From: Patescibacteria group bacterium | Lineage (GTDB): Bacteria; Patescibacteriota; Minisyncoccia; Minisyncoccales; CAZWNE01 | Reading direction: 5' to 3' | DNA: 64,000 nucleotides | NCBI GenBank assembly: GCA_038078735.1 | Contig: JBBTTI010000003.1 | Coordinates: 8,538 to 72,537, forward strand | In this document: piece after piece, positions 5,918 through 49,102 of the stretch | How the letters are laid out: the number at the start of each line of letters is the position of its first letter | How positions within the stretch are numbered: the first letter of the stretch is position 1 | Made by a program: the position numbers and the translations under genes | The notes under the pieces: generated by a model | Told to the model about the DNA's origin: nothing | What the model saw: only the letters and a program-made list of their open reading frames with translations | The model's database searches: none

Positions 5918-5936
5918 CTTGGCGATTCTTGTTGAG

Positions 5937-5961: not shown

Positions 5962-6028
5962 TCTATTCTACTGGCACCCTATTGAAGTCAGGCTTCAATA
6001 GAGAGACTTTAACAGAGACTTAAAATAA

Positions 6029-6063: not shown

Positions 6064-6214
6064 GTCCTAAATAAATCTTCTTTTGAACACTTACTTAGGG
6101 GAAAGAGAGAAGGGAGGAAAGGTTCTTGTTCTATCCTTAACTTTGTAATTACTCACAAAGGAAGTCCAATTACCCTTTTTAGGATTTCTCCACCTTGCCT
6201 TCTCTCTTATTGGG

Positions 6215-6436: not shown

Positions 6437-6536
6437 TGTTCTCACCTCCTTTCTGTAAAAATTTGGAAACGAGAGAGAAACCTTTAAGGTGCTTTGGAAA
6501 GAATTCTACTCTCTTTCCATACCATATGATAACACT

Positions 6537-16252: not shown

Positions 16253-17686
16253 ATGCTTAAACTTTATAATACTTTATCGCGAAAAAAGGAAATATTGAGA
16301 CCCTTCGCTAAGGCTCAGGGCGAAAAACTAAAGTTTTTCATCTGCGGGCCGACGGTTTATGATTTTTCTCACTTAGGCCACGCCAGAACCTATATTGCTT
16401 TTGATATGATCGTGAAATATCTAAGGCAAAAAGGATATGATGTTTTTTATCTGCAAAACATAACTGATCTTGATGACAAAATCATAAAACGTGCGGAGGA
16501 AAAAAATATTACGCCCCAAAAGTTAGCCAGAGATTTTGAGAAAGAATATTTAAAAGATATTAAGGCCCTTAAAATAACCAGCGTTTCAAAATACGCCAGA
16601 GCCACGGATTATATTAAGGAAATTATCAGTCAGACAGAACGACTTTTGAAAAAGGGTTTTGCCTATCAAATAGAAGACGGAATTTATTTTGATATTTTAA
16701 AATTTAAAGATTACGGCAAACTTTCACGGAGAACGGTTCTCCGGGCCGAAGACGGAGTTTCTCGGATTGATGAAAGTGTTAAAAAAATAAATAAAGGCGA
16801 CTTCTGCTTGTGGAAATTTTCAAAACCAGAAGAACCAACATGGACTAGTCCGTGGGGTCAAGGCCGGCCCGGGTGGCATATTGAAGATACGGCCATTACG
16901 GAAAAGTTCTTTGGATCGCAATACGATATTCACGGCGGCGCCAGAGATCTGATATTTCCCCATCATGAAGCGGAAATATCCCAAATGGAAGCGATTTCCG
17001 GTAAAAAACCTTTGGTAAAATATTGGCTTCATACCGGATTTTTAACCGTCGATGGCCAGAAAATGTCAAAATCACTGGGGAATTTCATTACTATCCAAGA
17101 TTTTCTCAAAAATCACTCGCCCCGCTTACTCCGATTTTTAGTCATAAAAAGCCACTATCGATCTCCGATTGATTATAGTGAGAAAGTTATTTCTCAAACT
17201 AAAAAAGAATTGGAACGGATAGATGAATTTATTGATAAACTATTGAGGCCGAACCTCCATAGTTTAAAATCGGGGAGGTTCGGCCTCTTAAAATTCAAGA
17301 ACGCTTTTGATAACGCTATGAATGATGATTTTAATACGTCAAAGGCAATAGCTGTAATTTTTAATTTGATTAATAAAGGAAACGCTATAATTGCCCAAAA
17401 TAAATTATCTTCTAGCGATGCTAAAAATATTTTAGGCTTTTTAAAAATAATTGATAAATTCTTTGGTTTTATCTTTTGGCAGAAATCCGAAAATAAGCAA
17501 CCTCAGAGGTTGCTTAGCCTAGTTAAGCAACGGCAAAAATATCGGGAACAGGACAATTGGCAAAAAGCTGACGAGATGAGAGAGGAAATTAAAAAACTAG
17601 GATATTCAATAGAAGACACAAGTAAAGGACCAGTAATTAAAAGAAGCTTAGCTTCTCACTTAGAAGCTAAGCTTCTAAGTACCTAA
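16253..17686 (+). CDS. cysS: cysteine--tRNA ligase
   Basis: HLGHARTY and KMSKSLGN class I motifs. The last ~12 codons are encoded by a family B palindrome. Confidence 0.9.
   Translation: MLKLYNTLSRKKEILRPFAKAQGEKLKFFICGPTVYDFSHLGHARTYIAFDMIVKYLRQKGYDVFYLQNITDLDDKIIKRAEEKNITPQKLARDFEKEYLKDIKALKITSVSKYARATDYIKEIISQTERLLKKGFAYQIEDGIYFDILKFKDYGKLSRRTVLRAEDGVSRIDESVKKINKGDFCLWKFSKPEEPTWTSPWGQGRPGWHIEDTAITEKFFGSQYDIHGGARDLIFPHHEAEISQMEAISGKKPLVKYWLHTGFLTVDGQKMSKSLGNFITIQDFLKNHSPRLLRFLVIKSHYRSPIDYSEKVISQTKKELERIDEFIDKLLRPNLHSLKSGRFGLLKFKNAFDNAMNDDFNTSKAIAVIFNLINKGNAIIAQNKLSSSDAKNILGFLKIIDKFFGFIFWQKSENKQPQRLLSLVKQRQKYREQDNWQKADEMREEIKKLGYSIEDTSKGPVIKRSLASHLEAKLLST
17495..17515. repeat. intragenic perfect palindrome AAGCAACCTC-A-GAGGTTGCTT inside cysS
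   Basis: 10-1-10 inverted repeat read in-frame as ...KQPQRLLS... Confidence 0.7.
17642..17676. repeat. REP-like palindrome, family B (AGAAGCTTAGCTTCT cactt AGAAGCTAAGCTTCT), copy 1
   Basis: Perfect 15-bp arms. It forms the C-terminus and stop region of cysS. Near-identical copies lie at 19683 and 33072, with a variant at 32942. Confidence 0.85.
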
Positions 17687-19099: not shown

Positions 19100-19677
19100 T
19101 GCACTCCCCTACTATTCAAAAATTAATTGATTTGTTTTCCAAATTTCCAACGGTTGGTTCCAGAACAGCCAGCCGTTTTGTTTTTTATTTATTAGGATTA
19201 AAAAAAGAAGAGGTCAGAGAATTGCTGAATAGCATCGCAGATATCCGAAATAAAGTTAAAATCTGCCCTTCTTGTTTTAATCCATTTGAGCCCTTCGACG
19301 CGACTCAGGGTAAATCCGACGTTTGTTTGATTTGTTCTGATCCAAGACGGAATAAATCTCTTCTTTGTGTTGTGGCTAATGAAACCGACTTAGAGGCGAT
19401 TGAAAAAACAAAAAAATATAAAGGTTTTTATTTTATTTTTGAAAAATTAAGGATTAAGGAATTGGAAAAAAAATTAAAAGAACATCCTGAAATTGAAGAA
19501 ATTATCTTGGCTATGAATTCTACCACTGAAGGCGAAGTCGCGACTTTATATTTACAAAGATTATTGGAACCTTTTAAGAAAAAAACAACTCGCCTTGGGC
19601 GAGGTCTGCCAGTCGGCGGTGAATTGGAATATGCCGACGAAGAAACTCTCTCTTCGGCTTTGGAAGGCAGGAAGTAG
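19099..19677 (+). CDS. recR: recombination protein RecR
   Basis: HhH region, C4 zinc finger (CPSCFN...C..C) and Toprim domain. Confidence 0.9.
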   Translation: MHSPTIQKLIDLFSKFPTVGSRTASRFVFYLLGLKKEEVRELLNSIADIRNKVKICPSCFNPFEPFDATQGKSDVCLICSDPRRNKSLLCVVANETDLEAIEKTKKYKGFYFIFEKLRIKELEKKLKEHPEIEEIILAMNSTTEGEVATLYLQRLLEPFKKKTTRLGRGLPVGGELEYADEETLSSALEGRK

Positions 19678-19682
19678 TTAAA

Positions 19683-19717
19683 AGAAGCTTAGCTTCTCAC
19701 TTAGAAGCTAAGCTTCT
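19683..19717. repeat. REP-like palindrome, family B, copy 2 (between convergent recR and rplU; overlaps the rplU stop codon)
   Basis: Identical 15-5-15 palindrome. Confidence 0.85.
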
Positions 19718-20033
19718 AAGACTTGAGGTCAATGGTTTTAATCTCTACTTCAGTAAATTGCTGACGATGGCCCTTTTTGAGGTGATAGCGTTTTTTGGCT
19801 TTATATTTAAAAATAATTACTTTTTTGGCCTTTCCCTGACTTAGTACTTTTCCCGTCACCTTAGCTCCTTTAACAGTTGGAGATCCGATCTCCAATTTAT
19901 CGTCTTTCTCCAAAAGCAAAACTTCGTCAAAGATAACCTCTTTGCCGTCTTCAATTTCCAGTTTTTCAATTTTAACTTTTTCTCCGGGTTTAACAATATA
20001 TTGCTTTCCCCCGGTTTTAATCACAGCCAACAT
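19716..20033 (-). CDS. rplU: 50S ribosomal protein L21
   Basis: MLAVIKTGGKQYIVKPGEKVKIEKL. Start placed at the internal Met that matches the bL21 N-terminus. Confidence 0.85.
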   Translation of the reverse strand: MLAVIKTGGKQYIVKPGEKVKIEKLEIEDGKEVIFDEVLLLEKDDKLEIGSPTVKGAKVTGKVLSQGKAKKVIIFKYKAKKRYHLKKGHRQQFTEVEIKTIDLKS

Positions 20034-21064: not shown

Positions 21065-21833
21065 TAGCGAGAAGTGTTCTCGCTAATATTTATTCAATTA
21101 CAACTTGATCAAAATCGGCTAATTCTTTTTTAGATTGCAACCAATCGTTAACAAATCTTTGGCAGCCTTGAACGCCGCCCATTAGTTCGGTTAGAAATTC
21201 CCTGCTGGTTAAAGATGGAAAATTTTTCTCGTCTAAATAATCTATGTAGCTTGACCAGCGATATTTCTTTAAAAATTTTAATACTTTCTGAAAGTCCCCA
21301 CCCTTAATCCCCTTTTCTTTCCAACCCGGAACTATTATCGCCACAGGGTTAGTATGAATATAAACAAAAACGGTCATTAGTTGATTGTCATTTTTAATAT
21401 GAACTAGCTTATATCTTCCATCAAACAAATGTCCGCTTCTTTTATATTTTTTATTATAATATCCGCCGTACCCAGCGCCAAGCTTTCTCATAAATTTACT
21501 AATCCCACCTTCGCCAAGCTGTCTAAGCAATAAATGGATATGATTCGGCATCAAACAAAACGCCAATATCTCCACTAATAGTTTTCTCTTCCTTCTTTTA
21601 TCCCTTTCTAATAGTCCGAGAAATGTTCTCGAACTATTGAAACTTCGACGAAAATTCCATAACGCTGGCGCTTCATCGTTAAATTCAAACAGATCATGAA
21701 TCATCCTAAAATAATCTTTTTCGTCGCGAAAAAGCTTCAAGCCTTCTATCGCTCTGATTACAACATGGTATATTTCTCCAGTAACTAATGGCGGTCGTTT
21801 TGTGGACATATAATGTGCCGAGAAATGTTCTCG
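21065..21833 (-). mobile_element. RAYT/IS200-like unit 1: Y1 transposase gene flanked by CGAGAA..TTCTCG hairpins
   Basis: TAGCGAGAAgtgTTCTCGCTA at 21065..21085, CGAGAAatgTTCTCG at 21819..21833, and an intragenic copy at 21617..21631. Confidence 0.6.
21090..21809 (-). CDS. COG1943 / IS200-like HuH Y1 transposase (REP-associated tyrosine transposase-like)
   Basis: HuH motif LMPNHIHLLL and the YIHTNPV tyrosine motif. Paralogous to 40181..40879. Confidence 0.7.
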   Translation of the reverse strand: MSTKRPPLVTGEIYHVVIRAIEGLKLFRDEKDYFRMIHDLFEFNDEAPALWNFRRSFNSSRTFLGLLERDKRRKRKLLVEILAFCLMPNHIHLLLRQLGEGGISKFMRKLGAGYGGYYNKKYKRSGHLFDGRYKLVHIKNDNQLMTVFVYIHTNPVAIIVPGWKEKGIKGGDFQKVLKFLKKYRWSSYIDYLDEKNFPSLTSREFLTELMGGVQGCQRFVNDWLQSKKELADFDQVVIE

Positions 21834-26042: not shown

Positions 26043-26884
26043 AATTTTACTGCGGCTCTTAATTTTGCTGAACGCGCTCTATGATTAATTTTAATTTCTT
26101 GAAAAGATGCAACGACTGGCTTTTTTGTTAAAATTTTTAACGAATCTTGTTTAAAAAAATTTTTAATAATTCTGTCCTCTAGGGAATGGAATGAAATTAC
26201 AATTATTCTGCCATCTTTTTTCAGAACTTCTAAAGATTGCGGCAAGACCTTTTCTAAATTGTTCAATTCATCATTAACCGCTATTCTTAATGCCTGAAAA
26301 GTTCTGGTGGCAATGTTTATTCTTTGACTTTGGTACCAGACAGGGGTGGCTTTTTTTATGATTCCCACAAGCTGGAAAGTATTTTGGATGGGATTTATCT
26401 GCCTTGAGGTTATAATTTCTCTGGCAATCTCCTTAGCAAACTTTTCTTCGCCGAAATCAGTCAAGATTTTTTCTATTTCCAGGGCTGACCAGAAATTTAC
26501 TATTTTTTCTGCGGTTAATTGATTTTCAACGCTATATCTCATGTCCAAGAGTTCTTGTTTTTGAAAACTGAATCCCCTGCCCGATTCTTCCAAATGCCAA
26601 CTGGACATTCCCAAATCAATTAAGACTCCGTCTGCTTTGCCAAATTTTGTTTTTTCAACTATTTCTTTCAGGTTGGTAAAATTATCTTCCGCAAGGACTA
26701 ATCGCTCATGATTCTTAATTCTTAAATTAAAATCTATCCCAAGTACTTTTCCATTAGGCTTTGTTCTTTCGAGAATAGCTGATGTATGCCCGCCTTCGCC
26801 TATTGTGCAATCAATGAAATTCTCGTTTGGCTTTGGGTCAAGATATTCTATAACCTCTTTTTGAAGAACAGGTATATGGTCCAT
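26027..26884 (-). CDS. rsmH: 16S rRNA (cytosine1402-N4)-methyltransferase
   Basis: HIPVLQKEV and DCTIGEGGHT SAM-binding motifs. Confidence 0.9.
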   Translation of the reverse strand: MDHIPVLQKEVIEYLDPKPNENFIDCTIGEGGHTSAILERTKPNGKVLGIDFNLRIKNHERLVLAEDNFTNLKEIVEKTKFGKADGVLIDLGMSSWHLEESGRGFSFQKQELLDMRYSVENQLTAEKIVNFWSALEIEKILTDFGEEKFAKEIAREIITSRQINPIQNTFQLVGIIKKATPVWYQSQRINIATRTFQALRIAVNDELNNLEKVLPQSLEVLKKDGRIIVISFHSLEDRIIKNFFKQDSLKILTKKPVVASFQEIKINHRARSAKLRAAVKLCQPL

Positions 26885-26887
26885 TCT

Positions 26888-27319
26888 TTAAATTCCTAAT
26901 TCTTTTATTTTCCCAGCAATATCCCCTATTTCTCCCTCCACTTTTTTCCTATAAATTTCCCAACTATCGGCATTCCAAATTTCCAATCGGTTGTATAAAC
27001 CGCAAACCACAACATTTTTTACTAAACTGGCGTAATTTTTTAAATAATCCGGCACAAGAATTCTGCCTAATTTATCCAATTCCACTGCCATAGCGCCGGC
27101 CAGCATAATTCTGGCGAATCCCCTGGCTTCCGCTTGCCCAGATGGCAATTTACCCAATTTGTCTGACATAATCTCCCATTCTTTTTGGGTATAAACAACC
27201 AAGCAGTTATCTAGTCCTCTGGTGATGATAACCATTTCGCCGAGTTCCTTGCGAAACTTAGCTGGCAAGGCCAGTCTTTTTTTGGCGTCAATTGTATGGC
27301 GAAATTCTCCTATAAGCAT
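26888..27319 (-). CDS. mraZ: transcriptional regulator MraZ
   Basis: Duplicated MraZ domains (EFRHTIDAKKRLALPAKFR). Confidence 0.9.
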   Translation of the reverse strand: MLIGEFRHTIDAKKRLALPAKFRKELGEMVIITRGLDNCLVVYTQKEWEIMSDKLGKLPSGQAEARGFARIMLAGAMAVELDKLGRILVPDYLKNYASLVKNVVVCGLYNRLEIWNADSWEIYRKKVEGEIGDIAGKIKELGI

Positions 27320-27325
27320 AAATAG

Positions 27326-27366
27326 TTATCCACAGATTAAGGCACTTATCCCACACTTATCCACAA
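27326..27366. promoter_or_regulatory. three TTATCCACA-type boxes (DnaA-box consensus; on the mraZ strand, GTGG(G)ATAAGT direct repeats) immediately upstream of the mraZ start
   Basis: TTATCCACA at 27326, TTATCCCACA at 27346, TTATCCACA at 27358. They resemble MraZ operator GTGG repeats and also the DnaA box. Confidence 0.45.
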
Positions 27367-27502
27367 CGTGCCATTTCATACCCTTATGTATCCTTTATAC
27401 CCCACCTCAAGCCACATCGTCAACAAAATTCCCCACTTCTAAAAATAAGGCTAAAATCAAGATTTATGCACACCTTTTCCCCACCACACATAAATAAAAC
27501 AT

Positions 27503-27585
27503 CAGAGGGGTGTCCTCCGCTGTTTTCTGTGGTTGGCTTAGCCAACCACAACTACTGCTTAATCTGGAAGGTTTCAGGGTTAATT
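27503..27585. repeat. ~83-bp direct repeat (left copy) duplicating the 3' end of the clpB-like gene; boundary of island 2
   Basis: cagagg..tcctccgctgttttctgtggttggcttagccaaccacaactactgcttaatctggaaggtttc is about 93% identical to 29175..29259. This left copy has in-frame stops. Confidence 0.8.
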
Positions 27586-27597
27586 TTTATTCGAAAT

Positions 27598-27618
27598 GAT
27601 AGACGTTCAACGTCTATC
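27598..27618. repeat. REP-like palindrome, GATAGACGTT-c-AACGTCTATC variant
   Basis: Perfect 10-1-10. Sister copy at 35690..35710. Confidence 0.7.
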
Positions 27619-27662
27619 ATTCGTCTATTACTATGTTTATCACTATTTTAATAATAAAAAGG

Positions 27663-27697
27663 CGGCGAGATTTAAAACCTCGCCGCTTTGCGATTAT
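27663..27697 (-). terminator. rho-independent terminator of the island gene
   Basis: AGCGGCGAG..CTCGCCGC hairpin followed by a T-run on the minus strand. Confidence 0.5.
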
Positions 27698-27702
27698 TGA
27701 TA

Positions 27703-28782
27703 TTAACTCAGCTCTCCGATTGCTACGCCACGAAACTGCTTACGCTTTTGAAGACTTTGCTCTTCAAGAATTTTGCGGTTTGCCGGTGTAATGGTAGCAA
27801 TAATATCGCCGATCGAATCGGATTTGCCTTGCGACATTTTGTAGAGATTCGCTATTCCCGCGAGCGTCATCTCCCGACCATCTTTGGCAAAATGGTTAGC
27901 AACCCAAGCGATCATTCTTGCATCCTCACCGACATAAGCGATGTCGGAAAGCGCGAAAACTCGGCCCTTGCCATTAAACATCATTGTCAGACCCTCGCCC
28001 TTGAGCCACTCCACGACCTGAACATCAGTCTGGCTGTCCCCGACATACATCACCCTCCTTTTTGGAATGCCGAATCTTTGACAAACCGTTTCCATTACCT
28101 CCCGCTTCTGGGTTTGGCCAACAGGATGAACCGTCCTTAGTAATCGGCCGACAGGCATATTGTAAACCTTGTCCCAAATAAATCTGGTGAATTCGTCGTA
28201 GTCGGCTTGATGTTCAGGAACGATATCCCCTGTTTCTTTGTAGTAATCAACAACTGGTTTTCTAGCGATTGATACCATGAAGCCCAGGAGTTGCGCTGTT
28301 TCTGTCGCACTGATAGGAATCTCATCAAACCCCGTAACTCTAGTACAGTTGGTCTGACTGAAATTGAATCCCACCTTGTGACAATACGCCCTGACAAACC
28401 ACTCGTAGCTGGTGGAAATCATCCAGACATTGCAGCCGCGACGAAGATCGGTCAAGGCCTCTTTGACAAAAGGCACCACTCGGAGACTCTTACTGGAAAA
28501 ATCTTGTAACCATCGAGAGTCAGCTCCCATCGCCTTGAAGAACGGCAGAACAACTTTCAAGGTATGACCGGAAGAATAGTTTGGGTCTTGGGGAATTAAA
28601 TGACAGTCGCCCCATACGTCATCAATCCCACTAAACCTCGCGTAGGCGCGCTCCCCGATTTCTTTACCTAAGCCGGACTTTTCAGCCAATGCCACCATAA
28701 TCTGTTGAGCATTGTCATTAATGACTTGCGGCCCTTCCAAATCCAGGATAACCCAAATTCCATTTATTTTTACCCACCTCAT
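27703..28782 (-). CDS. hypothetical HAD-like hydrolase-fold protein (atypical motif I) on a GC-rich island
   Basis: 359 aa at about 48% GC. N-terminal WVILDLEGP has DxE in place of DxDG. C-terminal VMYVGDSQTDVQ resembles HAD motif IV. Family assignment is tentative. Confidence 0.4.
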   Translation of the reverse strand: MRWVKINGIWVILDLEGPQVINDNAQQIMVALAEKSGLGKEIGERAYARFSGIDDVWGDCHLIPQDPNYSSGHTLKVVLPFFKAMGADSRWLQDFSSKSLRVVPFVKEALTDLRRGCNVWMISTSYEWFVRAYCHKVGFNFSQTNCTRVTGFDEIPISATETAQLLGFMVSIARKPVVDYYKETGDIVPEHQADYDEFTRFIWDKVYNMPVGRLLRTVHPVGQTQKREVMETVCQRFGIPKRRVMYVGDSQTDVQVVEWLKGEGLTMMFNGKGRVFALSDIAYVGEDARMIAWVANHFAKDGREMTLAGIANLYKMSQGKSDSIGDIIATITPANRKILEEQSLQKRKQFRGVAIGELS

Positions 28783-28789
28783 TTCTCTT

Positions 28790-29099
28790 AACTCCTTTCA
28801 AATTTTTTCCACTGCGGCGTTGATTTCCGCAGTCAGATCGTAGCCGTCTACCAAAAGCGTTCTCCTTTCGGCCAACATTTTTCCGGTTTAAATCGGAGCG
28901 AAGAAAAAGTTACCAAAGGTATTCCGGCCGTTTGGATATTACGAATCATCAAATCGCCGAAACGAGTTTCGCTTTGGTCGCGACTGACAAAGGCAAAACT
29001 TAATTGGAAGTTTTTGGAAATCTCATTAACTAACTCCCAAGCAACCTGGTCCCAAGCTGAAGTAAATACCCCTATTCTAAACATTAAACACCTCCTCAA
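28790..29099 (-). pseudogene. frameshifted formyltransferase-N-terminal-like fragment
   Basis: ORF 28848..29099 (MFRIGVFTSAWDQV...GIPLVTF) stops and the reading continues in another frame (..LLVDGYDLTAEINAAVEKI) up to the next gene's SD. Weak resemblance to PurN/Fmt N-terminal domains. Confidence 0.3.
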
Positions 29100-29174
29100 T
29101 TTTTATTCAGTTTCAAAAGGACTTCTGTCCTCCTTTATGTTTAGATTAACCATAAATCAATAAAAGTCAAACAG

Positions 29175-29259
29175 CAGAGGTCTGTCCTCCGCTGTTTTCT
29201 GTGGTTGGCTAAGCCAACCACAACTACTGCTTAATCTGGAAGGTTTCGGGGTCGATTTC
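29175..29259. repeat. ~83-bp direct repeat (right copy), overlapping the intact clpB-like 3' end and stop
   Basis: See 27503..27585. Includes the GTGGTTGGCTaAGCCAACCAC hairpin. Confidence 0.8.
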
Positions 29260-31761
29260 TACTTTACTGCCGCGCTTTATTTGATCAGAGAGAATGGCTG
29301 TGGCTAGGACATTGCCGATTTTGTCTTGGATAACTCTTTGCATCTGCCTGGCGCCAAAAGTCGGATCATATCCTAATTCCACAATCTTTGCTTTCAACTC
29401 GGGAGTTATAACAAATTCAATTTCCTTTTCCGCTAAATTCTTTTTCAGCTTCTTTAACAGAAGTTCGGCTACGCCTAAAAGATTATTTTTTGATAATGGA
29501 CCAAAGACAACCACTGAATCAAACCTGTTAATAAATTCCGGTCTAAAGATCGCTTTCTCAAAAACAAAATCCAAAAGCTTTGCCTTGACTTGGTCCCAAA
29601 CAGTATTTTCTTTTAACGCTTCGAGAATTATCTGATATCCGGCGTTTGACGTGGCAATAATAATTGAGTTTTTAAAATCAGTTTTCCTGCCCAAACCATC
29701 AGTCAACTGGCCCTCATCCAACACTTGCAAAAATAAATTTAAGATATTGGGATGAGCTTTTTCAATTTCATCTAAAAGTATTAAAGAGAAAGGCGCTTCT
29801 CTAATTTTAGTGGTTAACAACCCCTCTTGGCCGGGAGAACCGATTAAACGGGGAATATCGGCAATGTCTTGGAATTCCGACATATCCAGCCGAATCATTT
29901 TATTTTCCGAACCAAAATAAATTGTGGCCAAGGCCTTAGCTGTTTCAGTTTTGCCAACGCCGGTCGGTCCTAAAAATAAGAACGAACCGATCGTGCCTTT
30001 TCTGATACTGACTTCGGCTCTCGCCCTTCTTAGAGCCGAAGAAACCTCCCTAACAGCCTCTTCTTGATTAATAATCCTCTGATGAATTAAATTTTCCAAA
30101 TTTAAAAGGACTTCTTTTTCTTTTGTTTCTATTTCGCCAACCGGAATCTGGGTTTTTTCTGAAACAATTTTAAAGACATCTTCCGGCAAAAGTATTCTGG
30201 CTTTTTTCTGAGAGGCATAGACTATTATTTCATCCAATAATTTTATTACTTTTTCAGGATTAGTCTGCGAGGGCAAATATTTATCGGAAAGCCGGACGAT
30301 TTCCCGCAAGCTGGAATAAGAAATAAAAATCCTGTATCTTCTTTCCAAAATTAAAGATAAATTCTCTAAAAGCAATAATGTCTCCCGCTCTGAAATTTCC
30401 GCCACTTCAACCTTTTCAAAAAGATCTAAAATAGAAGAATTCTGCTCAATATTTCTGTGAAGGCCCTCAAAAGTGGTGATGGCTATTACCGGGAAATTTG
30501 GCAAAGCCAAGTAGGGCAAAATCACCCCGGAAATATTTAAAAAATTATGAAACTCGTCAATGACTAAAATAATATTTCCGGCAGTCGCTACTTCATTAAA
30601 AATAGCGTTTAAAAGGCTCTCCGGAGCTCCCTGATTGGTCAGACTTGCCAAATCAAGTTGCACTACTCTTTTATAATTAACTTCTTTTAAGCTCTCGCCC
30701 AAAACACTTCTTTTGGCTATAGCCTGAATTATGCTTTTTCTGCCGGACCCCGACTCTCCCACCATCAAAACGTTATTTTTTTCTCTGCGGGATAAAATTC
30801 TTTCTATCGCTTGAATTTCTTTTTGATGGCCGATAGTTTCCGGAAAGCCCTGCCTTTTGACCATATCTGACAAATCAAGAGAAAATTTATCCAAATTTAA
30901 AGTGTATCCGGCTGTCCAGTTTTTTGCCAGAGAGCCCTGTTTTATTAAATTTTTCCATTCCCAGAATTTTTTTCTCTCTTCAATATCTTCTTTCAGCGAC
31001 TGAAGCCACCAATTTAAATTTTTAATATCCTGATTCTTTAAATTAACGGCAACCAAGTACTTTTTGAAAGTAATATCAATTTCGCTGAAGGCCGATATTA
31101 AGTCCCCTACGCCGATTCTTTCTCCTCCTCGGTCTTTAGCGGCCTGAAAAGCAAGTAAAATAACTTTCTGGAAATCAAGGGAAAAAATTTCTTCCCCTGA
31201 ACGAGCTGAAGGGTCTCCCCGGAGCTTATCTAAACAAATTTTCAAGTCTTTTTTTATCCCCTTTAAATATAAAAGGGCCCGGGTAAATATAAAATTAATC
31301 TCCTTGCCGTCTTTAAGCGCAAAATAAAGCAGGGCCTCGGAAGAAATTTCGGCTAATTTTTTCTTGCGGGAAAATTTGATTGCTTCCCAACAAGCATTAG
31401 CCGCCCCAAGACTTAAAAATTCAGCTAAATTTACTCCTTCTTTATAATCTGGCAACCGAGGTTTTTTTAACTCCGACGCGCTTCCTAGCGGTCGGAGCTC
31501 CGATACTGATGGTCGTCGGAGTTTAGTTTTGAAAAAAATTTCCAAAAGCCAAAAAGTAATTGCCGAGGATAGAGTGATTAAGGAAAGCGCCAAAAATCTT
31601 TCCGGGAAGGAACGATAAAAAAGGGCCACCAAGAAAAAGAAAAATAAAGCAAAAAATAACCTTCTGATTAATTTGGCAAATCTGAAAACCGGAGTTTTTC
31701 CCCATTTTACCGCCGTAAATATTTTTGCTTTTTTTAAATTAAAATAGAATTGAGAATCCAT
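29224..31761 (-). CDS. ClpA/ClpB/ClpC-like double AAA+ ATPase with N-terminal TM segments and non-canonical D1 Walker A
   Basis: Clp N-domain repeats. D1 has GESGSGRKS in place of GEPGVGKT, with Walker B DEFH. D2 is canonical (GPTGVGKTE, sensor 2 GAR). The hydrophobic N-terminus is FFALFFFFLVALF. Confidence 0.75.
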   Translation of the reverse strand: MDSQFYFNLKKAKIFTAVKWGKTPVFRFAKLIRRLFFALFFFFLVALFYRSFPERFLALSLITLSSAITFWLLEIFFKTKLRRPSVSELRPLGSASELKKPRLPDYKEGVNLAEFLSLGAANACWEAIKFSRKKKLAEISSEALLYFALKDGKEINFIFTRALLYLKGIKKDLKICLDKLRGDPSARSGEEIFSLDFQKVILLAFQAAKDRGGERIGVGDLISAFSEIDITFKKYLVAVNLKNQDIKNLNWWLQSLKEDIEERKKFWEWKNLIKQGSLAKNWTAGYTLNLDKFSLDLSDMVKRQGFPETIGHQKEIQAIERILSRREKNNVLMVGESGSGRKSIIQAIAKRSVLGESLKEVNYKRVVQLDLASLTNQGAPESLLNAIFNEVATAGNIILVIDEFHNFLNISGVILPYLALPNFPVIAITTFEGLHRNIEQNSSILDLFEKVEVAEISERETLLLLENLSLILERRYRIFISYSSLREIVRLSDKYLPSQTNPEKVIKLLDEIIVYASQKKARILLPEDVFKIVSEKTQIPVGEIETKEKEVLLNLENLIHQRIINQEEAVREVSSALRRARAEVSIRKGTIGSFLFLGPTGVGKTETAKALATIYFGSENKMIRLDMSEFQDIADIPRLIGSPGQEGLLTTKIREAPFSLILLDEIEKAHPNILNLFLQVLDEGQLTDGLGRKTDFKNSIIIATSNAGYQIILEALKENTVWDQVKAKLLDFVFEKAIFRPEFINRFDSVVVFGPLSKNNLLGVAELLLKKLKKNLAEKEIEFVITPELKAKIVELGYDPTFGARQMQRVIQDKIGNVLATAILSDQIKRGSKVEIDPETFQIKQ

Positions 31762-32128
31762 AATAAAAACCGCTGATTAAAAGAAAAGGCAGGGCTAACC
31801 AAGCCAAAAAAATGATTAAACCGGCGGATAATATAAAAACTTCAAATAAAATGCCGGAAATTATTAAAAATACTCTGACGATCGCTCCTAAGATCCGAGA
31901 AATTAAATTAGAGAAAAAAACCTCGAGATATCTTTTGATGTCAAAACCCCTGCCGTAAGACCAGCTGTATCTCCGCCAAGGAGAAAATAGGGTTTTTAAT
32001 AAAAGAGGCAAAGAAAAATAATTAAGTCCGAATTTTAAAAAATTCTTCCATCCGGCTAAAACATTTTTGGGTGACTCCAAAAATTGCCAAACAATATACT
32101 GAAAGATAATATTTTGAGCCATTATCAA
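31739..32128 (-). CDS. small membrane protein, co-operonic with the clpB-like gene
   Basis: 129 aa with 3 TM helices. Overlaps the downstream gene start. Confidence 0.45.
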   Translation of the reverse strand: MIMAQNIIFQYIVWQFLESPKNVLAGWKNFLKFGLNYFSLPLLLKTLFSPWRRYSWSYGRGFDIKRYLEVFFSNLISRILGAIVRVFLIISGILFEVFILSAGLIIFLAWLALPFLLISGFYYGFSILF

Positions 32129-32134
32129 ATTATA

Positions 32135-32458
32135 CTACTCCCTTAAGATACTGTCTAACTCGTCAAGGATATCTTGGGGCACTGGTATGGACTTGCCGAT
32201 TGGACTTCTGGCCGGATACCGCCAAGTACTAATAATTTTTATTTTTGATATTTGATTTTTAATTTTAGTTATCACATACATCAACCATATCTCGGTTGGA
32301 TGTTTCTTGGTGCCGGTAATTTGCATTGCGGCCAAAGTGTCAGGCGCTATCCCCTCTTCTTTTCTGTCGGGCCGACGCAAAACTCGCAGAACCCTTTGTT
32401 CGGAAAGCCGATACTGCCGCATTTTAATTTTTGAATGTTGAGTCCAACTTAATAACAT
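32135..32458 (-). CDS. hypothetical protein (possible small toxin-like fold)
   Basis: About 95-107 aa ending ...KIKIISTWRYP. Weak resemblance to DUF4258-type proteins. Overlaps the prmC 3' end. Confidence 0.35.
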   Translation of the reverse strand: MLLSWTQHSKIKMRQYRLSEQRVLRVLRRPDRKEEGIAPDTLAAMQITGTKKHPTEIWLMYVITKIKNQISKIKIISTWRYPARSPIGKSIPVPQDILDELDSILRE

Positions 32459-33063
32459 TTGAGATAACGATATTTTTTAAATTGGTCTTTAAAAAATTGA
32501 TATTTTTTATAACCGAATTTTTCCAGCATTTTTTTGATATCTTCTTTTTGCAATGGATCGAATTCCATAAAGATCATATTACTTTTGTCTTTAGCTTCTC
32601 TCAAAAATATCTTAATAATATCTAATCCTTTTTCTCCGGAAAAAAGAGCGATGTGCGGTTCTTTTTCCAAAACCGAAAGTTGGACTTCATTGATGCGTTC
32701 CGTTGCTATATAAGGCGGGTTGGCAAAGATGACATCGTATTTTTTCCTTCTGATTTTTTCAAACAAATCTGATTTATAAATTTTATATCTTTTTGGAGAT
32801 ATTCTATTAAGCTTTAAATTAATTTTAATCTGCTTAATCGCGCCTTCATATATATCAACGAAGTCTACTCGACTATTTTTAATATTTTTCAAAACAGCAA
32901 CCCCAATGCATCCCGAACCGGCAAATATATCTAACGCTTTTAGAGGCTTAGCTTCCTTTTGGAAGCTAAGCCTCTTCAGAGCTTTTTCTACCCAGAATTC
33001 AGTTTCAATACGAGGAATCAAAACTTTTTCCCTTAAATCAATTTGACAGTTTAAAAATTTCAT
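32449..33063 (-). CDS. prmC: release factor glutamine N5-methyltransferase PrmC/HemK-like
   Basis: SAM-binding DIFAGSGCIG and the NPPY motif (FANPPYI). An in-frame family-B-variant palindrome lies at 32942..32975. Confidence 0.8.
   Translation of the reverse strand: MKFLNCQIDLREKVLIPRIETEFWVEKALKRLSFQKEAKPLKALDIFAGSGCIGVAVLKNIKNSRVDFVDIYEGAIKQIKINLKLNRISPKRYKIYKSDLFEKIRRKKYDVIFANPPYIATERINEVQLSVLEKEPHIALFSGEKGLDIIKIFLREAKDKSNMIFMEFDPLQKEDIKKMLEKFGYKKYQFFKDQFKKYRYLKCY
32942..32975. repeat. family B variant palindrome (AGAGGCTTAGCTTCC tttt GGAAGCTAAGCCTCT) inside the prmC coding sequence
   Basis: Perfect 15-bp arms, read in-frame as ..KRLSFQKEAKPLKA.. Confidence 0.8.
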
Positions 33064-33071
33064 ATCCCAAA

Positions 33072-33106
33072 AGAAGCTTAGCTTCTCACTTAGAAGCTAA
33101 GCTTCT
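33072..33106. repeat. REP-like palindrome, family B, copy 3 (between the tgt stop and the prmC start)
   Basis: Identical to copies 1 and 2. Confidence 0.85.
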
Positions 33107-33109
33107 AAT

Positions 33110-34258
33110 TTAAAATTTGCCTTGCTTGATTTTATTTCTGATGCCTTCAATGTAAGTGTTGAAAAAATACAGGTTGTGGAAAGTCAGTAATTTTAAGGCA
33201 GTAATTTCTTTAGCCCGAATAAGATGAGAGACATAATTTCTTTTATAATTTTGGCAGACAAGGCAAAAGCACTTTTTGTCTAAAGGATTTTTATCCGTCA
33301 GAAATTTTGTCTTAGCCATATCCATTTTACCACCAGAAGTGAAAGCAATGCCATGCCTGGCGTAATGAGTCGGGATAATGCAATCAACCGTATCAATGCC
33401 ACTTTTAAAAATTTTTATTAAGTCGCCGATATGGCCATTACCCAATAAATGCCTTGGCTTTTCTTCCGGTAAAACTTCGGTAACCCAATTTAACATTTTG
33501 AACATTTCTTTCTTATCAAATCCTAATTCGCCGCCTATGCCAAAACCGTCAAAATCAAGCCCGCTTATAAATTTAGCGCTTTTAATTCTTAAATCTTTAA
33601 ACTTGCCCCCTTGCACAATGCCATATAATGCTTGTTTTGCTTGCCCTGAGCTTGTCGAATGGGATTCAAGACAAATTTTCGCCCAAGAATGAGTCCTCTC
33701 TATTGATCTTTTCGTATACTCGTAATCGGCAATTGGCGGCGGACATTCATCAAAATTAAAAATTATGTCAGCCCCTAACTGCTCTTGTATTTTAATAGAC
33801 TCTTTCGGCCCTAAAAATAATTCACTGCCGTTGATCGGCGATTGGAAAAATACGCCATCTCTGGTAATTTTTAAGGATTTCGGCTGCCTGCCGGATTTAA
33901 TAGATAAAGATTCTTCTTTATTCAACATCTTTCCCATTTTAAAGTCCTTGCCAAAGCCCAGAGAAAAAACTTGATATCCTCCGGAATCGGTCATCAAGGG
34001 CTTTTGCCAATTCATAAATTTATGAAGACCGCCGGCTGATTTCACAATTTTTTCTCCCGGCTTTAAATGTAAATGAAAAGTATTACAAATTAAAATTTGG
34101 CTTTTAGTTTGTTCAACCTCTTCTGAAGTCAAGGTTTTTATAACCGCTTGAGTAGCCACCGGCACCAAACACGGCGTTTCCACCACGCCGTGAGATGTTT
34201 TCAAAATACCTAACCTCGCCCGAGATATTTTAGATTTTTTTAGAATCTTAAAATCCAT
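33110..34258 (-). CDS. tgt: queuine tRNA-ribosyltransferase
   Basis: TGT catalytic region (DSGGYQV, LHLKPGE) and C-terminal zinc site (CFCLVC...H). Confidence 0.9.
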   Translation of the reverse strand: MDFKILKKSKISRARLGILKTSHGVVETPCLVPVATQAVIKTLTSEEVEQTKSQILICNTFHLHLKPGEKIVKSAGGLHKFMNWQKPLMTDSGGYQVFSLGFGKDFKMGKMLNKEESLSIKSGRQPKSLKITRDGVFFQSPINGSELFLGPKESIKIQEQLGADIIFNFDECPPPIADYEYTKRSIERTHSWAKICLESHSTSSGQAKQALYGIVQGGKFKDLRIKSAKFISGLDFDGFGIGGELGFDKKEMFKMLNWVTEVLPEEKPRHLLGNGHIGDLIKIFKSGIDTVDCIIPTHYARHGIAFTSGGKMDMAKTKFLTDKNPLDKKCFCLVCQNYKRNYVSHLIRAKEITALKLLTFHNLYFFNTYIEGIRNKIKQGKF

Positions 34259-34295
34259 TTTATTATCTTATCATAAAACCGAGCCCCGTAAACGT

Positions 34296-34330
34296 GAAAA
34301 GGAGGTGTCGTAGAATTGACACCTCCTTTT
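34296..34330. terminator. perfect 12-bp hairpin (AAAGGAGGTGTC..GACACCTCCTTT) + T-run
   Basis: Lies between the tgt start and the island ORF. Confidence 0.5.
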
Positions 34331-34405
34331 TATTCTTTCGAATTTACCTTAGACCGCTAGCGCGATCTGGGCCGACAAGGCGCCGGCTCTGCCCGGGATT
34401 TCGGG

Positions 34406-35281
34406 CTAAAATTGGTCGTCCGATCCGTCCGCGAAATCATCGTCCGATGTGCGGACTGGGCAAATTGCCGCCTCCAAACTCTGGCGAATTTGGGCGAACC
34501 GCCGGGACTTAGAAATCCCTTTGGTCGCCGCAAGGTCGGCGACGGCCTTCTGGACAGCCAGTTTTAGGATGGCGAGGTCCAGTTTGGACTGAACTACTAT
34601 GGTCTCCGCCATCGCCCTAGCGATCTCCTCCTTGGTCTGCTGTTCTCGCCTTACCTCGGCGAGTTCGGCGGACTTAGAAGAGATTTGCACTTGGAGTTGG
34701 GAAATTTCCGCCCTTAGACCTGAAACGGTTTTCTTTTCCGTCTCAAGGTCGTAATGGAGGCGATTTATTTCCTCTCTTTCCATCGACCGCTCAATTTTAG
34801 TAGTAATCTCCCTACTGTAATCGAACGACTTACCGGTGACCTCTGTAAACCCTCTCCGAAAAAATTCGGCTGCTTGAGCAACTATGACTTCGACTTTCTC
34901 CGAAGCCTTCCCCCACCCCCCTCCAAAGGAAGTGAGAAAACCCTCTACATCATCGAGTACATCCCCATGAGGGGATGTACCACTGGCCCAGCTAGGACTC
35001 TTAATTACTATTTCGACTTTACCATCCCGGCCGGGTCCATTTACCAATTCTCCGGGGCGATAAAAGTCTAGGTAACCCCACAATAGTTTCCCCTCTAAAG
35101 CAATTTTGGCGGCCACGAATAATCCGTGGTCATCATTATGCGTTGGCAACACCCGCAACCTCCGCAACTCAACCCTATCCACCTCCTCCATCCCCGCTAC
35201 CACTGCAGCCACTTCCTCTCCTACTTTGCCAGCGAAAGTCTTTATTTCTTCCACTCTATTATTAATCATCTGGGTTTTCAT
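34406..35281 (-). CDS. hypothetical coiled-coil protein on a GC-rich island
   Basis: 291 aa at about 52% GC against ~35% background. Central coiled coil and an acidic C-terminus. No family recognised. Confidence 0.5.
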   Translation of the reverse strand: MKTQMINNRVEEIKTFAGKVGEEVAAVVAGMEEVDRVELRRLRVLPTHNDDHGLFVAAKIALEGKLLWGYLDFYRPGELVNGPGRDGKVEIVIKSPSWASGTSPHGDVLDDVEGFLTSFGGGWGKASEKVEVIVAQAAEFFRRGFTEVTGKSFDYSREITTKIERSMEREEINRLHYDLETEKKTVSGLRAEISQLQVQISSKSAELAEVRREQQTKEEIARAMAETIVVQSKLDLAILKLAVQKAVADLAATKGISKSRRFAQIRQSLEAAICPVRTSDDDFADGSDDQF

Positions 35282-35689
35282 TTTTTTCGTCCTTTTTCTT
35301 TTCTTTTTCCGCCTTCATTTCTGCAACTCCTTGTCCTGTTTTTTCTTGGCCTCCTTGCCAGAAAAACTCATCAAGTCGTTCAGAAAGCCGATCGGAAATA
35401 TTGCTGCGAAGCAGCAATAAAATGACTAATTAATAATCAGCTTATTGCTACTTCGCAACTCCTTATTAAATTTTTAAAGAAGCTGGTTTCAATGCCTAAA
35501 TTATATCATACTACTCCAACTTTGTCAAGTTTTTGTACTGGTTCACATAATATGATACACCCAGCACTTGAAAAATATGAAAGGCAGGTACAATGGTTGC
35601 CGTATGACAATCTACGGCACAATTCTGCCCGGAGCAGCCGCTATTGCCCGTTCGGCGTTCCTGACAGATAAATTAACGGAGCGTGAGAT

Positions 35690-35710
35690 GATAGACGTTG
35701 AACGTCTATC
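35690..35710. repeat. REP-like palindrome GATAGACGTT-g-AACGTCTATC
   Basis: Perfect 10-1-10, followed by CATTAC as at 27619. Confidence 0.7.
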
Positions 35711-35748
35711 ATTACATTTCTCTCAAAAAAAAGGCACGGTGGAGAAAT

Positions 35749-36009
35749 TCAAGGCCGTGCCCGAGAGATAAGCTCTCCTTGTTGAGGAAGCGATTGAGCA
35801 ATTTTAGCATCTTTCTGAGCTATAGTTATGGCAGTTGCCATTGCTTGCGCCCCTTCTTTTTGTATCAAGTGCACAAATTGTCCAGGCAGAATTTGACCCT
35901 TAATATCATAGCCGTCTTTCCTTACCCAAGGAGCTTCATTTAGAACGAGATAATAGAAGATAAAATGAGATTCCGGAATAGAAATTCTTTTCTGTTTTAT
36001 TCCTAACAA
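35749..36009 (-). CDS. hypothetical small protein (doubtful)
   Basis: 86-aa ORF in the GC-rich island with no family match. May be a gene remnant. Confidence 0.2.
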   Translation of the reverse strand: MLGIKQKRISIPESHFIFYYLVLNEAPWVRKDGYDIKGQILPGQFVHLIQKEGAQAMATAITIAQKDAKIAQSLPQQGELISRARP

Positions 36010-36101
36010 TCTATTGCCTCCTCCATATTTTATTCTAAATAAACTACTAATCTACTAATTAAACTATATTATATATCTCAAATTTAATCAACAATTAGAA
36101 A

Positions 36102-36122
36102 TGTTAGACGTCTGGCGTCTAA
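36102..36122. repeat. REP-like palindrome family A variant GTTAGACG-tctgg-CGTCTAAC
   Basis: Perfect 8-5-8. Identical core at 55651..55671. Confidence 0.8.
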
Positions 36123-36146
36123 CATTACATCGCACAACTTGCGAGA

Positions 36147-36467
36147 TTATTTAATTTCAAAACCATGAAATTCGCCATTATAATTTTCCCAAATGATTTC
36201 CATGTTTTCCACTTTGGCCAGAAAAGGGCCTCTTTTAGCCCATTTTATCATCTCTTCAATTTTATCTTTCTCCCCTTCAAAAATCGCTTCTACCCGGCCG
36301 TCGGCTAAATTAGCCACCTGGCCGGTTAAACCCAATTTTTGGGCCATTTTTTGCGTATTATGCCGATATAAAACACCTTGCACCCTGCCTAAAACAAAAA
36401 TATGAACCCTAATCCTTCGATCGGGATTAGTCCTGAACTTCGTTGAAGGACTTGCTTTTTCTGACAT
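36147..36467 (-). CDS. acyP: acylphosphatase
   Basis: VQGVLYR and GxVxNxxDGSVE-like motifs in a 106-aa protein. Confidence 0.8.
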   Translation of the reverse strand: MSEKASPSTKFRTNPDRRIRVHIFVLGRVQGVLYRHNTQKMAQKLGLTGQVANLADGRVEAIFEGEKDKIEEMIKWAKRGPFLAKVENMEIIWENYNGEFHGFEIK

Positions 36468-48181: not shown

Positions 48182-48339
48182 AGCAGCGAACTAAACACTA
48201 ATTTTATAATGTCCACTTCGCCGCTATAAAGATTTTTTTAAAGAGCCTACCAGTAAACTTTCATTAAATATAACACATATTGAACAATTTGGTAAGCCAT
48301 ATAAATTAAGTTTGATTTTTTATTATTCGTGTTAGGGTT

Positions 48340-48360
48340 GTTAGGTACTCAGTATCTAAC
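48340..48360. repeat. REP-like palindrome family A (GTTAGGTACT-c-AGTATCTAAC)
   Basis: Preceded by a gttagg half-site. Immediately 5' of CCCATCTTTCAGCC copy 2. Confidence 0.7.
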
Positions 48361-48370
48361 ATGTGCCTAT

Positions 48371-48409
48371 CCCATCTTTCAGCCTACAAATTTATTTATG
48401 AGCTGAAAA
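48371..48409. repeat. CCCATCTTTCAGCC...ATGAGCTGAAA element, copy 2
   Basis: Identical core to copy 3. Confidence 0.7.
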
Positions 48410-48990: not shown

Positions 48991-49008
48991 AAAAAGATAT
49001 TTTAGGTT

Positions 49009-49029
49009 GTTAGATACTCAGTACCTAAC
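49009..49029. repeat. REP-like palindrome family A (GTTAGATACT-c-AGTACCTAAC)
   Basis: Immediately 5' of CCCATCTTTCAGCC copy 3. Confidence 0.7.
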
Positions 49030-49063
49030 ACGTGTCTATCCAATAATTTATAATTTGTTGATT

Positions 49064-49102
49064 CCCATCTTTCAGCCTACAAATTTATTTATGAGCTGAA
49101 AA
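49064..49102. repeat. CCCATCTTTCAGCC...ATGAGCTGAAA element, copy 3
   Basis: Followed by a GAGGAGTT..AACTCCTC hairpin and a GC-hairpin/T-run. Confidence 0.7.

Follow-up and report, generated by a model that had tools for sequence, protein, structure and literature searches.

The 3′ end of a clpB-like gene occurs twice in the 64-kb stretch of Patescibacteria DNA analysed here (the window), and between the two copies lie a gene of the HAD superfamily and a short open reading frame (ORF) resembling a formyltransferase, ahead of mraZ. The question raised by this locus is how the direct repeat and the DNA that it encloses arose. The first-pass annotation had proposed a discrete GC-rich island bounded by the repeat and, with another islet, a recurrent and unannotated mode of gene acquisition at gene 3′ ends. 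Our analysis suggests a different origin. The repeat is probably the scar of an additive join of a filled and an empty clpB-mraZ allele, likely made by host recombination and without a recombinase encoded by an element. The observations that bear on this reading are the anatomy of the repeat, its match to empty sites in relatives, the variability of the locus, collinearity with a sister lineage that ends in a break inside the insert, the absence of a recombinase from the unit, and a tandem-allele signature at a neighbouring islet.

The direct repeat is real and consists of exactly two copies within the window. The copies, at 27492-27589 (left) and 29164-29261 (right), align without gaps and are identical at 88 of 98 positions, with a local alignment score of 73-75 compared to 10.2 ± 1.1 for shuffled sequences. 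Over the shorter coordinates reported earlier the identity is 77/83 (92.8%), in agreement with the first estimate of ~93%. The ten mismatches are scattered across all 98 nt, and no identical core flanked by diverged arms was observed. The core palindrome TGTGGTTGGCTWAGCCAACCACA was found at two sites in 64 kb, both in the repeat copies, where 0 are expected by chance. The repeat is therefore not a common genomic repeat, a possibility that the first-pass annotation had itself raised. The right copy (minus strand, as are all features of this locus unless noted) supplies the last 12 codons of the clpB-like gene (VEIDPETFQIKQ) and its stop, then two hairpins, hairpin 1 at 29200-29222 and hairpin 2 at 29169-29197; a T-run after hairpin 2 makes it terminator-like. 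This confirms the earlier description of a gene end, stop and terminator hairpin. The left copy has the same layout, with IKINPETFQIKQ and a stop, hairpin 1 at 27528-27550 and hairpin 2/terminator at 27503-27519. Its frame had been described as decayed by in-frame stops. We found none within the copy, which reads openly as IKINPETFQIKQ where the right copy reads VEIDPETFQIKQ, and stops occur only upstream of it, in unrelated sequence. Across the 12 shared codons the copies differ by 2 synonymous and 2 non-synonymous changes, plus V/I at the boundary codon. No known RNA family matched the region 26800-29600 at E ≤ 1.

The repeat ends right after hairpin 2, precisely at the limit of the homology between filled and empty alleles, and beyond this point the two copies continue differently. 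The right copy is collinear with the clpB end of the sister lineage L082 (relatives are given here by the L numbers of their loci), where the same two hairpins are present, and its T-tract passes into a spacer as in L082, whose locus is filled. The left copy continues directly into the mraZ upstream region, like the clpB terminator in the empty loci L083, L061 and L085; its hairpin 2 and T-tract pass into GTGG-rich sequence as in L083. These divergent continuations indicate a truncated filled allele followed by an empty allele. Among the closest relatives, ranked by ClpB identity to the window, L082 (93%) is filled with formyltransferase-HAD, L086 and L083 (87% and 81%, apparently one organism) are empty with 252 nt, L084 (84%) is filled with purD-HAD, and L061 (79%) and L085 (77.5%) are empty with 251 and 240 nt, respectively. 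The 1,672-bp repeat-bounded unit is absent from five empty-site loci of this group, among them L086/L083, L061 and L085. When one repeat unit is removed from the window, a clpB-mraZ spacer of 232 nt is left, which can be aligned to the 240-252-nt spacers of L061, L083/L086 and L085. A scan of JGI metagenomes with a conserved 23-mer from the mraZ upstream region yielded two more loci, both empty sites. No flanking duplication was detected in 27 relatives with filled clpB-mraZ gaps, or in L074/75 and L084. The repeat is thus specific to the window lineage, although the L082 contig ends too early to tell, and it is not part of the normal setting of the module at this locus.

The order clpB then mraZ is conserved across the clade (Patescibacteria, Nealsonbacteria / Paceibacterota), and what lies between the two genes varies widely. 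In 45 relatives the gap measured ≤450 nt in 17, 451-800 nt in 7 and >800 nt in 21. Filled gaps contain a DUF4015 glycosyl-hydrolase-like gene, DUF6612, a CAP/sortase/DUF11 cluster, a nucleotidyltransferase, or combinations of purD, an AAA_28 kinase-like gene, formyltransferase and HAD. The clpB-mraZ spacer is a hypervariable locus with alleles that are empty or filled. The combinations include clpB-HAD-mraZ in L018, clpB-purD-HAD-mraZ in L074/75 and L084, purD-formyltransferase-HAD-mraZ in L072, clpB-purD-formyltransferase-like-...-mraZ in L017 and L020, and a formyltransferase overlapping HAD in L078-80; in L018, L072, L074/75 and L084 the HAD gene lies directly upstream of mraZ. The cargo of the window is thus the remnant of a purD / AAA_28 / formyltransferase / HAD operon that is usual at the same position in many Patescibacteria. 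L084 and L075 are 66-69% identical, uniformly so across clpB, purD, HAD and mraZ, which indicates that the filled state was inherited vertically there and is probably ancestral. Frequent transfer of the block between lineages is not supported by this pair, in which block and flanks are alike at 66-69%. Conserved flanks, varied content and a mosaic identity of 70-100% along clpB relative to L082 agree with the description of horizontal gene transfer (HGT) hotspots.

The sister lineage L082, from well H43 of the same aquifer, carries the same hairpins and spacer and then an intact 233-aa formyltransferase gene. Its HAD allele is another one, with 49% amino acid identity to that of the window and a ~25-aa insertion. 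Identity between the window and L082 runs in blocks of 95-100% (small ORFs and clpB 5′ end), 70-78% with indels, 91-97% and 99-100%, and onward of 81-89% in the clpB 3′ part, ~76% in the hairpins (one 17-nt indel) and ~99% in the formyltransferase 5′ part. Within 29200-32450, stretches of 100% identity alternate every few hundred bases with stretches of about 70-89%. Between these sister lineages, which co-occur in different wells of one aquifer, clpB and the ORFs upstream of it are clearly a mosaic of homologous recombination tracts. Collinearity with L082 extends over the first ~280 nt of the insert, which take in the spacer and the 5′ part of the formyltransferase gene. As the right copy is likewise homologous to L082 and collinear with it, there is no junction from a fresh insertion at this end. 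An abrupt break follows at 28884/28883, after the stretch encoding FSSLRFKP, and past the break only short stretches at 60-76% can be matched. The GC-rich diverged tract therefore spans about 28883-27703 only, and its borders are not at the repeats. Thus the unit is missing from the empty-site relatives, but a discrete GC-rich island is not supported, and the change in composition and divergence falls inside the insert instead of at the repeat borders.

Islands with integrases, and the related cis-mobilisable elements (CIMEs), occupy the 3′ ends of genes or tRNA genes, examples being ICESt1/CIME at fda and the tRNA-targeting islands. A remnant of such a site-specific integrative element would be one explanation of the clpB locus: attP would mimic the clpB 3′ end, the repeats would be attL and attR, and the recombinase would have been lost or would act in trans. 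As in those islands, the direct repeats hold the 3′ end of a conserved target gene, which one of the copies restores. Close relatives are without the unit, and the perfect palindrome with 11-bp arms in each copy, its centre base differing between the two, could be a core site. Unlike those islands, the unit contains no recombinase, the formyltransferase remnant and the HAD gene being the only ORFs between the repeats, and none was called in the 15-kb context around the locus in L004. The collinearity of its first ~280 nt with L082, which has other content downstream, means that the unit is not discrete and has no sharp boundary on the clpB side. The cargo is a resident operon that is the normal occupant in distant lineages without repeats, the other repeat pairs of the window share no sequence with the clpB-end pair and no att core, and ten mismatches spread over 98 nt do not form a core-plus-arms pattern. 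Collectively, these results make an integrative element decidedly unlikely.

Further element classes were considered and rejected. A transposon with a target-site duplication does not match a 98-nt repeat at 90% identity with no terminal inverted repeats and no transposase inside. An integron cassette with attC was rejected on the fold, which consists of two separate short perfect hairpins, and on the lack of an R″/R′ core pair (RYYYAAC / GTTRRRY), as judged by eye. A dif/Xer site and the ends of IS200/IS605 elements were ruled out by the hairpin structure and by the absence of a motif common to the islets.

An additive join of two alleles would account for the arrangement as follows. The filled allele would consist of the clpB end, the twin hairpins, the spacer, the formyltransferase remnant, HAD, its terminator and a repetitive extragenic palindrome (REP), and would have been cut just past the REP. 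The empty allele would begin 38 nt before the clpB stop and continue through the twin hairpins into the mraZ promoter. The two alleles would then lie head to tail, and the 98-nt repeat would be the segment common to both. DNA from a close relative was probably added to the chromosome by way of two joints, a homologous one within the shared 98 nt and an illegitimate one. One possible route would be a single crossover of a circularised ~1.67-kb fragment inside the 98-nt homology, and another would be homology-facilitated illegitimate recombination (HFIR) anchored in the clpB end. A separate or older replacement within the filled allele, from 28883 to ~27703, would have brought in the diverged, GC-rich formyltransferase 3′ end and HAD. 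We infer from the sequences that host recombination acting on DNA of a close relative made the join and that the HAD allele was replaced separately. In E. coli, duplications of 109-950 bp of the homologous segment around integrated DNA have been ascribed to a single crossover with a circular molecule, and classical HFIR has one homologous and one illegitimate end (PMC3240628). When DNA with a short stretch of homology integrates by a single crossover, repeats like these on either side are the textbook outcome (PMC3240628). Patescibacteria have been reported to have many islands, retained genes for homologous recombination and DNA uptake mediated by comEC and pili (PMC12455944); RecR and RmuC are encoded near the locus. 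Many HGT hotspots lack mobile-element genes, are flanked by core genes that recombine often, and are over-represented in transformable species (PMC5635113).

Several observations weigh against a join of alleles. For RecA, a segment of 98 nt with 90% identity would be a short substrate, and classical HFIR usually yields deletions, not duplications (PMC3240628). The left copy carries E to K and D to N changes at residues conserved in all six relatives, and all four of its coding differences are GC-to-AT transitions; such changes suggest the decay of an older duplicate more than a functional donor allele. An extra CAG codon is present in both copies, while L082 and the outgroups are without it, which suggests either a young duplication or gene conversion. 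The nearest homologue of the HAD protein is 60% identical, and no donor or parental allele was found among the sampled sequences. The join leaves unaccounted for both the REP beside the left copy and those that adjoin the other repeat pairs of the window. In addition, the L082 contig ends before its mraZ, which bears on whether the left copy arose before or after the two lineages split.

Some of these points favour an old insertion with a long target-site duplication, in which the formyltransferase-HAD block entered an empty site once, at a staggered break or by a replication template switch at the terminator hairpins, maybe before the split from L082, and left two copies of 98 nt that then drifted to 90% identity. 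The left junction common to the window and L082 fits such an event, as does the 10% divergence of the copies, which is similar to that of the spacers of the window and L082 (about 85-88% identity, by eye). The GC-to-AT changes at conserved residues of the left copy are those predicted by decay, and hairpins and a REP lie at the borders. The filled state appears to be ancestral and repeat-free in L084 and L075, however, so that a de novo insertion is not needed, and the CAG codon shared by the two copies is absent from L082 and all outgroups. A length of 98 nt also far exceeds the known target duplications of transposases, and the duplicated gene ends of a neighbouring islet, described below, resemble functional alleles and not decay. 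An old insertion is consequently unlikely, and the join of a filled and an empty allele is the reading that we retain.

Could the integrated order be a product of assembly? Proteins of the window are also encoded on contigs from the Hainich groundwater well H14 (ENA ERZ1292646 and ERZ1292660), and in source listings a Patescibacteria metagenome-assembled genome at NCBI has a 77.8-kb contig with ClpB, HAD and the remnant of the formyltransferase. The replicate assemblies L001 and L004 have the same order, and the single base difference between them in the region is at 27539 (T or A). Contigs from Logan, assembled at k=31, break precisely within a 36-nt stretch common to both copies, and the k=31 graph fits an integrated unit as well as an empty chromosome with a circle. 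The artefact would then be a mixed population, in which an empty chromosome and a free or tandem 1,672-bp circle with the 36-nt exact stretch were threaded into one contig. L002 has 1,696 nt, equal to 1,672 + 24, and its ends overlap as they would in a circle, and the polymorphism of the centre base between samples is also compatible with a mixture. Against this stand the integrated order in two independent replicate assemblies (L001 and L004), with which the listings of the NCBI contig are consistent, and the ten differences between the copies, which are not those of a collapsed repeat. In addition, the single-nucleotide polymorphism (SNP) at 27539, compared between the window and L004, links clpB-side with spacer-side variants and HAD-side with mraZ-side variants over a spacing of 30-37 nt. 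This spacing would be short enough for one read or a long assembly k-mer to span, the phasing itself having been derived from assembled sequence. On the replicate assemblies and the SNP phasing we accept the integrated order; an artefact has a very small chance of being the explanation.

The polymorphic base is the unpaired centre of the 23-nt palindrome of the left copy. It is T in L001 and L008 and A in L004, L009 and L010. A is also the base of the right copy, and the change is equivalent either to the palindrome having been inverted or to one copy having been converted by the other.

Within the insert, a spacer at 29100-29163 separates the clpB terminator from the beginning of the formyltransferase gene. 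It carries a ribosome-binding site, GAGGAGG, and is about 85-88% identical to that of L082 in an alignment judged by eye. The 5′ part of the formyltransferase-family gene follows at 28884-29099, with its ATG at 29084, and differs at 2 positions in ~215 nt from the intact L082 gene (233 aa). At the average divergence of the locus, the chance of ≤2 mismatches in 215 nt is ~1e-6. Homology to the L082 gene ends after TTTAAACCGGA, which encodes the FSSLRFKP motif. A 3′-end remnant in another frame, ending in LLVDGYDLTAEINAAVEKI and a stop, occupies 28798-28883, where the GC-rich, diverged tract begins. The short ORF at 28848-29099 corresponds to the N-terminal ~70 aa of a Formyl_trans_N-family protein. 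A word-indexed search with the 83-aa fragment returned only the self-match, and a full HMMER scan was needed to reveal homologues. These are Formyl_trans_N proteins, 268-431 aa long, to which the first ~68 residues of the ORF align with 46-66% identity. The continuation in the other frame, up to DGYDLTAEINAAVEKI and a stop, resembles the C-terminus of formyltransferase homologues. As the N- and C-terminal matches are in separate frames, the gene is an internally deleted, frameshifted formyltransferase, in accordance with the PurN/Fmt-N-like fragment described in the first-pass annotation and with the intact gene of L082. The catalytic core of Formyl_trans_N is not kept: what is left are the N-terminal ~70 aa and, in a second frame, the final ~20 aa, and the remnant is ~130 codons short of the L082 gene. 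An in-frame, 106-aa mini-formyltransferase (P0123) is encoded in L081, from another metagenome (Logan SRR22388062), and comprises the N-terminal ~80 aa and the last ~20 aa. In L081, P0123 follows AAA_28 and is itself followed by an ORF of which the contig contains only the start. The remnant in the window (28798-29084) shares the architecture of P0123, with a linker 4 nt shorter. The truncated formyltransferase may thus be either an old, possibly functional variant or a deletion that arose twice.

The HAD-superfamily gene (27703-28782) is intact and encodes 359 aa of the EhaR / AF1437-like family. The family motifs DxEGP, STSY, K and GDSQTD are all invariant in 15 diverse members including the window protein, and mean column identity across these members is 59%. 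The score against Pfam PF00702 is 26.6 at a cut-off of 26.4, and family membership is assigned here by the motifs. The family is named 'EhaR' or 'predicted HAD superfamily phosphohydrolase' in some sources, and the only solved relative is the uncharacterised AF1437 (PDB 1Y8A, 1.6e-23). An intrinsic-terminator-like hairpin at 27662-27686, with an 11-bp stem followed by CTTTTTATTA, belongs to the gene. The ORF, its terminator and the nearby REP are all present as first described, but the DLEG motif, then called atypical, is the invariant DxEGP of the family. The family occurs in Patescibacteria and some archaea, and a phage vector is not indicated, as no relative of the HAD family was found in IMG/VR.

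The HAD gene has a GC content of 47.6%, and of 51% at third codon positions (GC3), the second highest among 55 ORFs of the window. The first estimate of ~48% for the intervening DNA holds for this ORF; values are lower for the whole unique insert (44.7%), for the region of the formyltransferase fragment (39.6%) and for the end with the terminator and the REP (33.6%). The window, for which a background of ~35% had been given, has 37.9%. The GC-rich part amounts to ~1.2 kb only. HAD, often with purD and formyltransferase, is also GC-richer than its flanks in L072, L073, L074/75, L076/77, L082 and L084. The GC excess, seen in most lineages, therefore belongs largely to the module itself and says little in favour of a recent arrival; base composition was accordingly rejected as proof of a recent foreign origin.

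On the minus strand, the gene order around the locus is TGT, methyltransferase, two small ORFs, the clpB-like gene, the short ORF, the HAD-like ORF, mraZ, rsmH, an ftsL-like ORF and a penicillin-binding protein (PBP) gene. The ClpB/ClpC-like AAA+ gene (29224-31761) encodes 845 aa with the Pfam domains AAA_2 (3e-44), ClpB_D2-small (9e-22) and AAA_lid_9, and in NCBIfam the protein is ClpB/ClpA-like, under the equivalog cut-offs. The mraZ upstream/promoter region (27320-27491) has GTGG-rich boxes and a TTGACG-17-TATAAA promoter, and the region is conserved in L061, L083, L084 and L085, which have it immediately behind the clpB terminator or the HAD terminator. To the right, the variable locus is flanked by the conserved mraZ (26888-27319), with which the dcw cluster (mraZ-rsmH-ftsL-like-PBP) begins. 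The net outcome is that clpB is intact, HAD is intact with its own terminator, the formyltransferase is dead, and a second terminator lies ahead of mraZ.

Is the clpB locus alone in the window? At 5349-6592, a DEAD-box helicase gene (6537-7736, minus strand) has its last 18 codons and stop repeated at 5523-5579 (57 nt), ~1 kb downstream, and both of the 2 differences in the shared codons are synonymous. In the same islet, 152 nt at 5764-5915 repeat, with 84% identity, the promoter of the next gene, Q_salvage (4501-5472), together with its first 41 codons. The frame of this copy is kept, with 10 synonymous and 6 non-synonymous codon differences. The islet also holds a 76-aa ORF (6215-6445) with no Pfam match and three REP-like palindromes. 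By its sequence, this islet reads as two functional alleles of one intergenic junction in tandem, derived from diverged relatives, and not as a decaying copy. The earlier claim of recurrence at gene 3′ ends is thus borne out to the extent that a second islet duplicates a gene 3′ end; a new, unannotated mode of acquisition is not. A 40-nt perfect direct repeat at 48370-48409 and 49063-49102 forms the third repeat pair; a REP-like palindrome precedes each copy (48338-48362 and 49008-49030), and the repeat brackets ~690 nt with a 58-aa hydrophobic ORF. No motif common to the three repeat pairs of the window was found, which argues against one site-specific system.

REP-like palindromes adjoin one copy in all three repeat-flanked islets, namely at 27595-27621, at 5620-5648, and at 48338-48362 and 49008-49030. 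That of the clpB locus (27595-27621, no strand assigned) is a perfect 27-nt palindrome, AATGATAGACGTTcAACGTCTATCATT, and ends 5 nt before the left copy. A second copy of it occurs at 35690, and the family is also present at 35685-35713, 36098-36126 and other sites. The centre base differs here as it does in the left-copy palindrome (C at 27608, G at 35700). The REP-like families of the window comprise TGTTAGACnnnnnGTCTAACA and variants of GATAGACGTTsAACGTCTATC. A gene for a Y1 (HUH) transposase-like protein of 239 aa lies at 21090-21809; its best NCBIfam match is to the REP-associated tyrosine transposase (RAYT), at 44.8 bits with a cut-off of 80, and it matches Pfam Y1_Tnp at 4.9e-10. L082 has a Y1_Tnp gene elsewhere, at 1966-2655 of its locus, with the methyltransferase gene on one side and the small ORFs that precede clpB on the other. 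The adjacency of REPs to the repeats raises the possibility of rearrangement driven by REP and RAYT, in which the Y1 transposase would nick REP hairpins and repair or strand transfer would duplicate and capture DNA. The presence of RAYT-like genes in the window and, differently placed, in L082 would also suit this explanation. The RAYT match is below its cut-off, however, and the end hairpins of the unit have no sequence relationship to each other; since the intergenic DNA is rich in REPs, their adjacency may be coincidence. To our knowledge, RAYTs and IS200/IS605 transposases do not make flanking duplications or carry cargo in this way. We regard a REP/RAYT-driven origin as very improbable.

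Two other features of the intergenic DNA were observed. Between the acylphosphatase gene (36147-36467) and TGT (33110-34258) lies ~1.9 kb (34259-36146) that is absent in L061, where these two genes overlap. This GC-rich insertion contains two REPs (35685-35713 and 36098-36126) and a 291-aa ORF (34406-35281), coiled-coil-like and of no clear family, whose GC content of 51% is the highest among the ORFs of the window. A flanking repeat at 34259-36146 was not significant, with a score of 14 against a null of 11 ± 1.6 (maximum 19.5). A 48-nt element is present in three copies (17632-17679, 19673-19720 and 33062-33109) with an internal 35-nt near-palindrome, AGAAGCTTAGCTTCTCACTTAGAAGCTAAGCTTCT. At least 2 of these copies come right after gene ends, those of a 192-aa ORF (ending at 19677) and of TGT (ending at 33110). 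From its sequence and placement, the element looks like a second REP/terminator family.

How does the scar compare to known processes? It resembles the HGT hotspots free of mobile elements described by Oliveira et al. (2017; PMC5635113) in its conserved clpB and mraZ flanks with varied content in 45 relatives, its lack of an integrase or transposase, and the mosaic flank identity between sister lineages. The exchange in those hotspots is modelled as a scarless double crossover, whereas here 98 nt are duplicated, the alleles are in tandem, and one joint is not a clean homologous exchange. A Campbell-type single crossover or HFIR (PMC3240628, which cites such works on S. pneumoniae, A. baylyi and P. 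stutzeri) shares with the clpB locus a duplication equal to the segment common to incoming and resident DNA, an intact target gene and no enzyme from an element. In contrast to the laboratory plasmids and marked fragments of that work, with duplications of 109-950 bp, the present case is natural, in an uncultivated Patescibacterium, and involves 98 nt at 90% identity. Merodiploids formed in transformation (Johnston et al. 2013; PMC3784515) arise by alternative pairing of partly repeated donor fragments, and there too the non-allelic pairing of DNA that has been taken up gives tandem versions of a region. They span 100-900 kb with repeat borders derived from insertion sequences, compared to 1-1.7 kb and a gene end as the repeat here. 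On these comparisons, the scar looks like the product of a known kind of process and not of a new kind of mobile element.

A broader proposal may be put forward, with considerable doubt. Patescibacteria of the aquifer might routinely gain and swap small gene blocks without integrases, by adding a relative's allele beside their own at intergenic junctions, anchored in gene ends and terminator hairpins and possibly helped by nicking through REP/RAYT; the ~1.7-kb circle might still excise and re-insert. If this were true, three scars in 64 kb would be the mark of a gene flux that is frequent and general in these reduced and presumably competent genomes. The clpB locus itself provides a sequence-level example of how gene content at a hotspot can change in an ultra-small, uncultivated bacterium without mobile-element genes, and it adds to the hotspot concept the visible scar of a non-reciprocal, additive event. 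The junctions can still be read: a probable homologous joint lies in the last 38 nt of clpB and the terminator, and the other joint is illegitimate. Taken by themselves, the GC excess and the flanking repeats would mislead to a discrete foreign island, where L082 points to a mosaic of at least two events. If tandem-allele scars are common genome-wide, they could serve as a marker for recombination and DNA uptake in Patescibacteria populations, read from metagenomes.

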